Below are positions 21,001-24,000 of a stretch of DNA of 64,000 nt, one piece after another. The stretch is from IMG/VR virus record IMGVR_UViG_2913112809_000002; one strand, 5' to 3'. Origin of the DNA: a virus (taxonomy: Duplodnaviria; Heunggongvirae; Uroviricota; Caudoviricetes). Within the stretch, counting starts at the first letter, position 1; each line of letters starts with the position of its first letter. A program made the position numbers.

Positions 21001-24000
21001 CTGGTCAAACTCATGACATTTCATGTTGAGCTGCGCACTTAAGCTGTTGCGATGCTGAAGTTCTCCGGTGAAGTAGTCATCCAGGACTTTATAGGCTGCA
21101 TATTTAAATCCGGGGTTTAGCCATGCTGCATAATCATAAGCAACAAACTTCCCGCCATATGTTCCACCGTGTACACCGCGCTCAGTAAAAACCACAGATT
21201 CGTGGTTTTTCTCCAGCTCGGCTAAGAACTCTTTGGTCTGCTTGTTTCGCAGGTAGTGGTACGGAGATTCAGATTCACTTTTACCACTGGCTTTCCACAT
21301 ATCAGTGAGGCAGATCATGCCATCTTCACCGATACGAATTGGTTGATTGAAGAGGGTTAATGATTTCATAGCGTGTACCTACTCTTTGAAATGAACCTTT
21401 GCCGCACAGGAAACCAGCCCACCGAGGCTCGCCAGCACTAACTGGTATCCTCAAAGGCCCATTCCAAAGGGTCAGGTTCGGTGTTTATTGTGCGCTGCGG
21501 TGCGCGGTGAAATACCGGTACAAAAATGCCCCGCATCTGCGAGGCATTTTCCTGAAAGTCACTTGTTAAATTTCAGTGAAATTAAAATTATTTTAAGCAC
21601 TGCGTCCTGATGTACTCCTGCAGGTAGTTAACCTGCGCGGTTATCCTGTCGATTCCACTTCGGAGACGGTAATAATTGAGTTCAGCATCTGCTGTAAGTC
21701 TTGGGCTTTCTCCATCGCCCATGCCGCTGGCTCCGGTCGTTGACTTTGCACAGGTGGCGGCGACTTGCAGGCGCTTACGCCCAGCAGAAACATCAGCACG
21801 GAGACTTTCGATAGTCGCGTTAGCATCAGCAAGCTCCTTTGTGTATCTGGCGTCGAGTTCTGCTACGTCACGTTGACGCTTCTGCATGTCAGCGATTATG
21901 GATGCGGCTTTGTCGCGCTGCTCTTTATAGGCGATGGCGTTATCACGGTAATGATTAACAGCCCATGACAGGCAGACGATGATGCAGATAATCAGAGCGG
22001 AGATAATCGCGGTTAACCTGCTCATTGCTGCCCCCACAAACAGACTTCACGCTCAATCTCACGACGGGTCATCAGCCCTTTCCATTGCTTACCGCCAGCG
22101 TATGTCCAGCGACGTAGCTGGTCACATGCGCCCTTGATATCGCCCTGGTTGATTTTGCGAAGAAGCGTCGATGTTCTGAAATTGCCTGCGCCCACGTTAT
22201 AGACGAACGAATAAAGAGCGCCGCGCGTTGTTTCCGGTATATCGACTTTGATGTACGGGTTAATTTGTCTGGCGACCGTGGCAAGGTCTTTATTCAGGAG
22301 GGCTTTGCATTCTGCTTCGGTATACGTTTTACCGGGAATGATGTCTTTTCCTGTATGCCCGTAACATACAGTCCATACACCAACAATATCTTTGTATGGT
22401 ATGTAGCTGACACCTTCCAGACCATCGTTACCACTTGGTCCAGTGATTAACACAGATGCTATAGCAATAGCCCCGCCACCAATAGCAGCAGCAACGGCTT
22501 TTCGTAATGATGGAGGCATTATTCACCTCTCGCAGCCTTTCGTCTGTCTTCTCTGATTTTGAAATACAGATTTGTCAGATAAGTGAGAAAACCCAACACA
22601 AGGCTTCCAAGCACTCCAATCGCAGCCCACTGTGACGGACTGACCTGATCCAACCACTGCAAAAACCAGTATCCTGCACTACCAGCAGATGTTCCGTAGG
22701 CAATGCCAGTTGAGATTTTGTCCATTGATTTCATAGCAACGCCTCCGCCAGTAACGGATTGCGTAGTTCTTATATTGGGAAGGGGAAAAAAGAAGGCCGC
22801 AGCGTAACTATCACTGATGAATTCAGGATAGCCAGTGGCTACGGCTCAGTTATGGTGCTGGTTAACGGACTTGAACCGCTACCCATTCGCTTACAAGGCG
22901 ACTGCTCCACCACTGGAGCTAAACCAGCATATTTGGCGGGACAGCGTGGACTCGAACCACGATAAGAAGGTTAACAGCCTTCCGTAATGACCTTTATACG
23001 ACTGACCCAAATAAAAAATCCCGAAACCGTTATGCAGGCTCTAACTATTACCTGCGAACTGTTTCGGGATTGCATTTTGCAGACCTCTCAGCCTGCGATG
23101 GTTGGAGTTCCAGACGATACGTCGAAGTGACCAACTAGGCGGAATCGGTAGTAAGCGCCACCTCTTTTTATCTCACTACCACAACGAGCGAATTAACCCA
23201 TCGTTGGGTCAAATTTACCCAACCTTATTCAAAAAGTCAATATCATGCCGTTAATATGTTGCCATCCGTGGCAATCATGCTGCTAACGTGTGACCGCATT
23301 CAAAATGTTGTCTGCGATTGACTCTTCCTTGTGGCATTGCACCACCAGAGCGTCATACAGTGGCTTAACAGTGCGTGACCAGGTGGGTTGAGTAAGATTT
23401 GGGATTAGCATCGTTACAGCGCGATATGCGGCGCTTGCTGGCATCCTTGAATAGCCGACGCCTTTGCATCTTCCGCATTCTTTCTCAACAACTCTCCCCC
23501 ACTGCTCTGTTTTTGCTATATCAACCGCACGGCCTGTACCGTGACAATCTCTGCATCTTGCGCCCGGCGTCGCGGCACTACGGCAATAATCCGCATAAGC
23601 GAATGTTGCAAGCACTTGCAGTACCTTTGCCTTAGTATTTCCTTCAAGCTTTGCCACACCACGGTATTTCCCCGATACCTTGTGTGCAAATTGCATCAGA
23701 TAGTTGATAGCCTTTTGTTTGTCGTTCTGGCTGAGTTCGTGCTTACCGCAGAATGCAGCCATTCCGAATCCGGCTTGTGATTGCGCCATCCCCATAGCAG
23801 CCATCACATCAGTACCAGAAAGAGAGTCAGAAGCCGTGGCCCGTGGTGAGTCACTCATCATCGGGCTTTTTGGCGAATGAAATTTAGCCACGCTTTCGAG
23901 TCTCATGCGCCTTCTCCCTGTACTTGAATCAATGTGAGGTTTCCGCAGAACACTGCGCCGGTATCGATATACATCTGGTTGGCAAACTTGAGTGGTTTCA

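Follow-up and report, generated by a model that had tools for sequence, protein, structure and literature searches.

The region at 21588-23906 of IMGVR_UViG_2913112809_000002, a virus record of which a stretch of 64,000 nucleotides (the window) was analysed, is, judging by its sequence, the late-gene switch and lysis cassette of a lambda-family prophage, with all of its features on the minus strand. It is an ordinary lambdoid mosaic of an already known type, since the modules of which it is made (lambda, phage 21 and HK97/P22) are already well known. We are highly confident in the reading as a whole, mechanism included, according to which homologous recombination would have joined pre-existing modules in a lambdoid prophage. 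This bears out the core of a sequence-only reading of the same DNA, namely that a lambda-type Q/PR'/tR' is followed by a pinholin and SAR endolysin of the phage 21 type and then by morphogenesis genes that are not those of lambda, and the alignments that it called for place the recombination junctions at the T-tract of tR', at the 5' end of Rz and at about 20.9 kb. The main use of the region lies in the annotation corrections that it calls for, and it is of little importance beyond them: the tRNA genes are part of the phage 21 module, the spanins come from a third source, and the virion genes are of the 611R5/SEN34 type. The boundaries at short conserved sequences (the terminator T-tract, the 59-nt hairpin of the leader and the 5' end of Rz) are those of textbook lambdoid mosaicism.

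A lambda-type late switch

The block that runs from ninH and ninI through Q, PR' and the 6S leader to tR' (24792..23011) is 97.4% identical to lambda (NC_001416) 43000-44781 over 1782 nt, and the match stops exactly at the last base of tR' (23011). The ninI-type Ser/Thr phosphatase at 23903..24571 (minus strand; Pfam Metallophos, 8.2e-17) shares 214 of 222 amino acids with lambda NinI, and the late antiterminator Q at 23283..23906 (Pfam PF03589, Antiterm, 1.3e-57) is identical to lambda Q at 206 of 207 residues, its identity to Q21 of phage 21 being 14%. The late promoter PR', located by promoter scan at 23212..23240, has the -35 element TTGACT, the -10 element TAAATT and between them a 17-nt spacer with the Q-binding element. 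Alignment shows that the -35, -10 and pause elements are the same as in lambda, and that the spacer differs from that of lambda by three substitutions, two of which are also found in the viable phages HK446 and mEp506, with the third (-19 A>G) absent from HK446, mEp506 and EC45. The positions of the pause and Q-binding elements we take to be those of the known lambda qut. The 6S-type leader at 23011..23205 begins with the AACGAT pause element (+1 to +6) and ends in the tR' hairpin (23017-23071) and a U-tract, both of which are those of lambda (fold -26.9 kcal/mol, z = -6.4). Over the whole interval from PR' to tR' (23011-23240), 223 of 230 nt are as in lambda, and the pause element and hairpin are unaltered. 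The earlier claim that Q, PR' and tR' match lambda is thus sound, and the three together would make up a late antitermination module of the lambda Q type.

A tRNA pair of the phage 21 leader

Between tR' and the holin gene lie a tRNA-Asn(GTT) gene at 22934..23008 and a tRNA-Thr(TGT) gene at 22853..22928, both called by ARAGORN and both well above the Rfam gathering score of 29 (55.3 and 56.5 bits). Both fold as canonical cloverleaves, tRNA-Asn with the discriminator G73 and an encoded CCA, and both are of the phage 21 type, with 75/75 and 74/76 positions identical to tRNA-Asn and tRNA-Thr of that phage. A tandem tRNA-Asn(GUU)/tRNA-Thr(UGU) with a Q-controlled terminator on its 5' side and a holin on its 3' side is the late-operon pair of phage 21, SfI and Sf6, and a tRNA pair downstream of Q has previously been reported in SfI, Sf6, ST64T and phage 21 (PMC3636060, PMC8022706). 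The sequence-only reading had the position of the two genes right and erred in calling them inserted: as phage 21 and SfI have the pair directly after their own tR', the pair appears to be native to the 21-type late leader rather than a separate insertion. For the same reason we place the joint between lambda and phage 21 sequence within the common TTTTTTAT tract of tR' (23011-23018), where in a five-way alignment the lambda-type and 21-type tR' stems converge on one T-tract, followed by tRNA-Asn.

If the pair had instead been inserted independently into a lambda-type leader, for example by host capture, it would have come to lie between tR' and a phage 21 holin gained separately. Lambda, where 163 unrelated bases stand instead of the tRNAs, fits such an insertion, as do HK446 and mEp506, in which lambda Q and the tRNAs stand with a lambda-type S, so that the tRNA segment can evidently move apart from the 21 lysis genes. 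We nevertheless consider independent insertion highly improbable, because phage 21 and SfI have the identical pair at the identical position, contiguous with S21/R21, and because 23018..21777 is a single unbroken match to phage 21. Recent capture from the host is disfavoured by identities of only 48/78 to host asnT and 55/78 to thrU, and the corresponding stretch of lambda holds no tRNA relic: the 163 nt between its tR' and the common hairpin matched no tRNA at a threshold as loose as E<=10, and the idea that this stretch is a decayed tRNA pair was rejected on that ground. The preferred origin, that of a pair carried in with the phage 21 module, is the one followed below.

Downstream of the tRNAs is a 59-nt hairpin (22793-22851; 22780..22851 with its U-run) that is 93% identical to lambda 44945-45003 and is common to lambda and to late leaders of the 21 type; it is present in phage 21, SfI, HK446, mEp506 and EC45. 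The predicted hairpin is kept in all six sequences compared, among which there are no compensatory changes, and for that reason the structure stays a predicted one. Going by its fold and by the tandem late terminators of lambda, the hairpin is probably a second terminator or a processing site. It is probably a recombination joint as well. Since the tRNA pair is placed between tR' and this second terminator-like hairpin, it would be made only when Q fires, and the promoter scan of the coding strand from Q to Rz found no tRNA-specific sigma-70-like promoter, PR' being the only promoter there.

As to the function of the pair, 25 late ORFs use the codon ACA at 13.2 per thousand; in the S. flexneri host this codon occurs at 7.1 per thousand, and the authors of the SfI study found the Asn codons to be without bias (PMC3636060). 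A supplementary role in the decoding of ACA and AAC/AAU codons in the late genes is weakly supported. The pair could otherwise serve as a Q-gated counter-defence, providing late replacement tRNAs that would withstand tRNA depletion or attack by tRNA nucleases, whether of the host or of a competitor, and not as a codon supplement at all, a proposal to which we give little credence. Three side observations are consistent with counter-defence, namely the divergence of the pair from host asnT (48/78) and thrU (55/78), its placement between tR' and the second terminator-like hairpin, which would tie its synthesis to Q, and its movement as a small cassette among late leaders of the lambda, 21 and P22 types.

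A lysis cassette of two origins

The holin gene at 22519..22734 (Pfam PF04971, Phage_holin_2_1, 'P21 holin S', 8.6e-36) encodes a protein identical to S21-71 of phage 21 at all 71 residues. It has the characters of a class II holin, or pinholin: the Phage_holin_2_1 match, two transmembrane segments and a dual start, with S21-71 beginning at 22734 and S21-68 at 22725 within an MKSM motif (Met1/Met4). The SAR endolysin of the R21/RrrD type (GH24) at 22022..22519 (Pfam Phage_lysozyme, 4.4e-47) was compared with the PDB by phmmer, which gave 3HDE (R21; 3.5e-108, 159/165 identical) and 4ZPU (RrrD; 161/165), and its residues 1-52 are the same as those of R21, the SAR helix and the catalytic E35/D44/T50 included. 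By its 96% identity to R21, the enzyme would be tethered to the membrane in a Sec-dependent manner and released on membrane depolarisation.

The spanin genes have another source. The i-spanin gene Rz at 21588..22025 (Pfam PF03245, 4.9e-36) is of the HK97/HK446/P22 type except for its first ~85 nt, which are 21-like; its product is 56% identical to Rz21 and 94-95% identical to the Rz of HK446 and EC45, and in a sliding-window comparison the identity to phage 21 falls after 21941. The joint from phage 21 to HK97/P22-type sequence thus appears to lie within the conserved ~85 nt with which Rz begins (22025-21941). The o-spanin gene Rz1 at 21641..21826 (Pfam PF06085, 2.4e-20) lies within Rz in the +1 frame and has the lipobox LLGVSAC, and the two genes fit a two-component embedded spanin, with an N-terminal transmembrane domain in Rz and a lipoprotein gene, Rz1, in the +1 frame. 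A terminator-like hairpin with a U-run follows downstream of Rz (21521..21553, minus strand; 13-bp stem, -20.2 kcal/mol, z = -3.8). The lysis cassette too is a mosaic, with S and R assigned to the phage 21 type and Rz/Rz1 to the HK97/HK446/P22 type. The previous assignment of the lysis genes to phage 21 therefore stands for S (71/71) and R (159/165) and fails for Rz/Rz1, and it is on account of Rz that the four lysis genes do not form a full phage-21-type cassette.

The morphogenesis module and its boundary

The head and tail genes had been described as Mu/SfV-like, and this description has to be given up. None of the 21 morphogenesis proteins has a tblastn match to Mu at E<=1e-3, the likeness to Mu being limited to a Mu-F-like domain in one head protein, and the tblastn similarity to SfV/SfI is limited to one fibre motif of 30-32 aa. 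The genes are assigned by their homologies to a myoviral module of the vB_EcoM-611R5/SEN34 type. It comprises Terminase_3, Phage_portal_3, the Mu-F domain, DUF2213, a cement protein, a DUF3383 sheath and baseplate J, and the 611R5/SEN34-type homologues of portal, DUF2213, cement protein, major capsid, DUF3383 sheath, tape measure and baseplate J are collinear. Eighteen of the 21 proteins have counterparts of 95% identity or more in vB_EcoM-611R5, with the tape measure at 75%, TerL at 36% in its C-terminal half only and TerS having no match, and at the nucleotide level the module is 81% identical to SEN34 and, from lysC to portal, 99% identical to AH19B041.

The boundary between the cassette and this module falls outside 21588-23906. 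A KilA-N/ORF11CD3 protein encoded at 20722..21369 (minus strand; Pfam KilA-N, 2.1e-15) runs on in frame into the C-terminus of a LysB-like i-spanin: its residues 1-155 are 96% identical to the KilA-N protein of MMC-J-0105, and over residues 149-215 the protein shares 88-91% identity with the C-terminal end of an i-spanin ORF of 130 aa found in AH19B041 and EC02. As DNA homology to the myoviral module begins at 20914, the joint would lie at about 20899-20914, within the resident i-spanin gene. Next to it, at 20559..20903 (minus strand), is an orphan o-spanin gene of the LysC type (Pfam LysC PF23793, 2.8e-18), which is annotated lysC in AH19B041 and EC02. The orphan lysC is a leftover of the displaced resident lysis cassette, and the KilA-N::i-spanin fusion is a recombination scar at the morphogenesis boundary; together they date the replacement of the cassette as secondary to the lysis genes that the myoviral lineage had of its own.

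The joint at about 20.9 kb is the only one of the joints in and next to the region that was not found elsewhere, having no second copy in any other record searched. Exact-pattern scans of the GTDB species representatives gave zero hits both for this joint and for the lambda-tR'/tRNA/S21 arrangement, counts that are weak negatives because the collection has one genome per species. It might be argued that the mosaic joints are artefacts of short-read assembly, produced when similar prophages were collapsed, as the window contains two lambdoid segments with common repeats and the joint between them (A/B, near 39.3 kb), like that at 20.9 kb, has no match in any other record searched. We regard this as extremely improbable, given that five complete E. 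coli chromosomes have the tR'/tRNA, tRNA/S21 and R/Rz joints in one piece, and that the 20.9-kb joint is a clean in-frame fusion whose parents overlap by a few residues, as real recombination would give.

A different doubt is whether the region is functional or only the remnant of a dead cryptic prophage, comparable to essD-rrrD-rzpD of DLP12, with no working late switch or lysis cassette. No integrase-size ORF follows the early-left genes, between the two divergent late operons, within the window, and because of this the whole prophage may be a defective one; moreover, the morphogenesis module has its resident i-spanin only in truncated and fused form, and the endolysin is closest, at 161/165, to the cryptic-prophage enzyme RrrD. 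In the region itself, by contrast, the ORFs from ninI to Rz1 are all full length, Q is one residue in 207 away from lambda Q and S21 is identical to that of phage 21, while there is no damage to the R21 SAR helix, to E35/D44/T50, to PR', to the pause element or to tR', and each tRNA has a canonical fold. The 21 morphogenesis ORFs are likewise all open, and the phage vB_EcoM-611R5, to which 18 of them are at least 95% identical, is an isolated one. A dead remnant is for these reasons unlikely, and the proposal below is that of a working switch and cassette.

Proposed mechanism

We infer antitermination, the expression and processing of the tRNAs, and lysis from identity to what has been characterised in lambda and phage 21. 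PR' would be constitutively active, with RNA polymerase pausing at +16/+17 on AACGAT, a -10-like element, and without Q it would stop at tR' to give a 6S-type RNA of ~194 nt. After induction, Q of the lambda type would act at its site in the PR' spacer to make the polymerase resistant to terminators, so that it could read through tR', the tRNAs, the conserved hairpin, the lysis genes and the terminator after Rz into the morphogenesis genes, and the tRNAs would probably be excised from this late transcript. Lysis is expected to follow the phage 21 route, in which the pinholin S21-68, held back by the antiholin S21-71, would depolarise the inner membrane. The depolarisation would free and activate the membrane-tethered SAR endolysin, and the Rz/Rz1 spanin would then break the outer membrane.

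Comparison with known systems

The sequence-only reading had held that the organisation would be unremarkable if an already described phage had it. None of 50,697 phage records covers at least 80% of a query spanning the lambda-tR'/tRNA/S21 joint, but five RefSeq E. coli chromosomes have exactly this arrangement in one piece, at 97.0-97.7%, and E. coli prophages with the same block are those of MMC-J-0105, EC45, A10, K71-77 and ws5-3. The uncharacterised P22-like prophage of MMC-J-0105 has a continuous ninG-ninH-ninI-Q-tRNA-Asn-tRNA-Thr-S21-RrrD-Rz block (97.8% over 3766 nt) with the same KilA-N gene next (87.6%), but there the KilA-N gene carries no spanin fragment and is followed by terminase, portal and scaffold genes of the P22/Sf6 type instead of the myoviral module.

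Phage 21 (OL657228), whose record is annotated in the order pR', QBE, terminator, tRNA-Asn, tRNA-Thr, S21-71/68, SAR endolysin and spanins, has the tRNA pair, the conserved hairpin, the dual-start pinholin and the SAR endolysin in the same order and at the same position as the region, with 98.3% nt identity from the tRNAs through S into the 5' part of R. It differs in having its own Q21, QBE, promoter and tR' stem, a lambda-like Rz/Rz1, and bor as the next gene in place of KilA-N. SfI, with its S21 cassette and tRNAs, was set aside as a close relative, since only nin, tRNA and lysis DNA is common to the two and the virion genes are not. Lambda, unlike the region, has no tRNAs but 163 unrelated bases between tR' and the common hairpin; its holin S is of class I, its R is a transglycosylase, and its morphogenesis genes are siphoviral. 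HK446, mEp506, Kapi1 and phiv205-1 have a lambda-type Q/PR'/tR' followed by the same tRNA pair and 59-nt hairpin (98-98.5% nt); in Kapi1 and phiv205-1 the match ends at the hairpin, and in HK446 and mEp506 the hairpin is followed by a lambda-type holin and endolysin, not S21/R21. HK446 was accordingly rejected as a phage combining lambda Q with S21, its holin being lambda-type and its common ground with the region being Q to the hairpin and Rz, not S/R. The relatives of the myoviral module (611R5 and SEN34, and prophages in AH19B041, EC02 and VL40) have mostly other Q types, and instead of the present cassette a lambda-type holin, a GH24 endolysin and LysB/LysC cassettes. EC02 has lambda Q together with the same myoviral module, and VL40 joins that module to an S21-type cassette and four different tRNAs.

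The lambda-type late switch

The late regulatory and lysis region of segment A, the lambdoid segment that contains it, is real, correctly located and intact-looking. All genes in 21588-23906 lie on the minus strand, and these limits are exactly the Rz stop and the Q start. The Q gene (23283-23906) follows the ninI phosphatase gene (23903-24571, also minus), and window 24792..23011 matches lambda 43000-44781 at 97.4% over 1782 nt, where the lambda comparison sequence began at 43000 and the match may reach further. NinI is identical to its lambda counterpart at 214/222 residues and Q at 206/207, while Q is 14% identical to Q21 of phage 21. 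From the -35 element of PR' (23240-23212) through the tR' U-tract, 7 of 230 nt are substituted relative to lambda, three of them in the promoter spacer (-28, -19 and -18) and the others at -3, +37, +46 and +116. The -35 TTGACT, the -10 TAAATT, the AACGAT element at +1..+6 and the entire tR' hairpin (23071-23017, U-tract to about 23009; predicted fold -26.9 kcal/mol, z = -6.4), which forms the 3' end of a 6S-type leader, are unchanged, bearing out the sequence-only reading that Q, PR' and tR' are lambda-like. Similarity to lambda ends at 23011, corresponding to lambda 44781, the 3' end of 6S RNA.

The phage-21-type leader and lysis cassette

Two tRNA genes, tRNA-Asn(GTT) (23008-22934) and tRNA-Thr(TGT) (22928-22853), follow on the same strand. 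They are identical to the phage 21 copies at 75/75 and 74/76 positions, and to E. coli asnT and thrU at only 48/78 and 55/78, respectively. A five-way alignment places a lambda-type tR' stem in the window, HK446 and lambda and a 21-type stem in phage 21 and SfI, but both stem types converge on a common TTTTTTAT(TT) tract, and tRNA-Asn comes next in every aligned sequence except lambda. Since this arrangement is also that of phage 21 and SfI, the tRNA pair belongs natively to the 21-type late leader, and the lambda/21 crossover falls within the T-tract of the terminator. The tRNAs had been described as inserted between tR' and the holin; the position is correct, the insertion is not. One single match covers window 23018..21777 in phage 21 (92.6%) and SfI (95.1%), and the annotated order in the complete phage 21 genome (OL657228; PMC9119081) is Q21, pR', QBE, pause element, terminator, tRNA-Asn, tRNA-Thr, S21-71/68, SAR endolysin and spanins. 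SfI, Sf6, ST64T and phage 21 are reported to have such a pair after Q (PMC3636060), and a paper that discusses phages L and Sf6, where tRNAs are 5'-most in the late operon, leaves the excision of these tRNAs from late mRNA undecided (PMC8022706). In the prophage of E. coli EC45, the tRNA-Asn (6909-6983 of locus L002) has two changes relative to the copies in the window and phage 21, one at the discriminator (G73 to T) and one at acceptor-stem position 69 (T to C), and may be decaying or of altered identity; position 4:69 is mismatched in the EC45 copy and in the window/phage 21 copy.

A second switch point lies 3' of tRNA-Thr, where a 59-nt segment (22851-22793, minus) is common to lambda (44945-45003, 93%), phage 21, SfI, HK446, mEp506 and EC45. 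Beyond it HK446 and mEp506 are lambda-like toward the lambda-type S, whereas the window, phage 21, SfI and EC45 proceed toward S21, and the segment is the point of exchange between lambda-type and S21-type holin leaders. It is predicted to form a long hairpin, followed by a U-run only in the 21-type leaders; a covariation check of the hairpin revealed no compensatory changes, so the structure stays a prediction.

The holin (22734-22519, minus) is identical to S21-71 at 71/71 residues, including the Met1-Lys-Ser-Met4 dual start, and matches the Pfam family P21 holin S (8.6e-36). It overlaps the endolysin gene (22519-22022, minus) by 1 nt (TAATG). The endolysin is identical to R21 (PDB 3HDE) at 159/165 residues and to DLP12 RrrD (PDB 4ZPU) at 161/165, and no residue differs over positions 1-52, the stretch that holds the SAR helix and E35/D44/T50. 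Rz (22025-21588, minus) overlaps the endolysin at ATGA and contains the embedded Rz1 (21826-21641, minus); a terminator-like hairpin follows (21553-21521, minus). Rz is 56% identical in amino acids to Rz21 and lambda Rz, but 94-95% to those of HK446 and EC45. In a 40-nt sliding comparison every Rz type is 90-100% identical over 22020-21941, past which identity drops to 75% or less for phage 21 and lambda but holds at 92-100% for HK446, Emek and EC45. The lysis cassette is therefore itself mosaic, with S and R of 21 type and Rz/Rz1 of HK97/P22 type, and the earlier description of the lysis genes as phage-21-type applies to S and R only.

Replacement of a resident lysis cassette

At the boundary with the morphogenesis module, homology to prophages of E. 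coli AH19B041 (99.3%) and EC02 (96.4%) starts at window 20914. Both have the order lambda-family holin, GH24 endolysin, LysB-like i-spanin, lysC, TerS, TerL. A 130-aa ORF that RefSeq leaves without annotation (4801-5193 in the AH19B041 locus L005, with an equivalent in the EC02 locus L008) has an N-terminal transmembrane segment, overlaps the lysC start and resembles the LysB-type i-spanin that would pair with LysC. In the window we find an in-frame fusion ORF of 215 aa (20722-21369, minus), of which residues 1-155 are the KilA-N/ORF11CD3 protein of the E. coli MMC-J-0105 prophage (96%) and residues 149-215 the i-spanin C-terminus (last ~65 residues, 88-91%). The o-spanin gene lysC (20559-20903, minus; Pfam LysC, 2.8e-18) is intact, and its i-spanin partner has no membrane anchor. 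An incoming Q-tRNA-S21-R21-Rz-KilA-N block has therefore replaced the resident holin, endolysin and 5' i-spanin of the myoviral lineage, bringing its own spanins along, and the fusion is the recombination scar of this replacement.

The head and tail genes had been assigned as Mu/SfV-like, and this fails: tblastn with 21 proteins (420-20335) gave no Mu match at E<=1e-3 and, in SfV/SfI, only a 30-32-aa tail-fibre motif. In DNA, the matches to SfI are confined to the nin and tRNA/lysis segments, a few early ones and a 77-nt fibre piece. The module is of contractile-tail type (Terminase_3, Phage_portal_3, DUF2213, cement protein, PF09950 capsid, DUF3383 sheath and baseplate J, with one Mu-F-like head domain), which probably lay behind the assignment.

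Proposed mechanism of late expression

We infer the whole mechanism from identity to characterised systems. PR' would be constitutive, with polymerase paused by sigma-70 re-binding the AACGAT element, and without Q transcription would stop at tR'. The lambda-type Q would load at the spacer element and render polymerase terminator-resistant, such that tRNAs, lysis and virion genes would be transcribed as a single late operon, and lysis would proceed as in phage 21, by pinholin and SAR endolysin, with the spanins acting afterwards. A promoter scan found no second sigma-70-like promoter beyond PR' on the coding strand from Q to Rz, which fits Q-dependent tRNA expression. ACA use is 13.2 per thousand in the late ORFs (7.1 per thousand in the S. 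flexneri host; PMC3636060) and AAC accounts for 14/19 Asn codons in the capsid gene, lending mild support to the tRNAs as a decoding supplement.

Segment B, the second lambdoid segment (joint with A near 39.3 kb), has a late switch of another family, with a PF06323 Q (Phage_antiter_Q; 42455-43150, plus) followed by tRNA-Thr(TGT) and tRNA-Gly(TCC) (region 42455-43628, plus). These are identical to host thrU at 75/76 and glyT at 73/75 positions, with no tyrU between, and thus come from the host, in contrast to segment A and its diverged phage-type pair. The two late operons diverge from a common middle (~30500-43200) in which no integrase-size ORF was found. PL-side genes of segment A (cI, 30488-31195; cIII thermometer, 34049-34107; DUF551 gene, 38701-39321) directly abut the nin-like region of segment B (isrK/C4/a1b1, 39421-39623; sok, 40331-40501; then DUF968 and Q). 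The middle could reflect an assembly join, or two prophage halves brought together by recombination or inversion. Against E. coli prophages, segment B reaches only about 90% identity, scattered over many pieces.

Comparison with known phages and prophages

A 1151-nt query from the Q 3' end through the R 5' end spans the joints, and none of 50,697 phage records covers at least 80% of it. Phages fall into classes matching the tRNAs and S/R (phage 21, SfI, phi458), lambda Q and the tRNAs (HK446, mEp506, Kapi1, phiv205-1), or Q to tR' only (lambda-like phages). The whole query occurs in one piece in 5 of 5,426 complete E. coli genomes (97.0-97.7%); no match of at least 99% crosses a joint among RefSeq complete E. 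coli genomes, and the full 17000-24000 stretch is in no genome searched. The DNA may come from an Escherichia or Shigella lineage that has yet to be sampled. MMC-J-0105 carries a continuous ninG-to-Rz block (3766 nt, 97.8%) and the KilA-N gene (87.6%), but there, as in EC45, P22-type virion genes come after the block. EC02 has lambda-type nin/Q adjoining the same morphogenesis module as the window, and E. coli VL40 an S21-type cassette beside that module type, although with another Q and four other tRNAs. The morphogenesis genes are collinear with those of vB_EcoM-611R5, with 18/21 proteins at least 95% identical in amino acids, but identity is lower for the tape measure (75%) and for TerL (36%, C-terminal half), and TerS lacks a match; those of Salmonella phage SEN34 are 81% identical in nucleotides. 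Every pairwise junction within 21588-23906 is therefore already in public data, and novelty is limited to how the modules are assorted overall. The region consists wholly of known modules (94-100% identity), an ordinary case of lambdoid mosaicism, and sequenced E. coli prophages already contain the same block.
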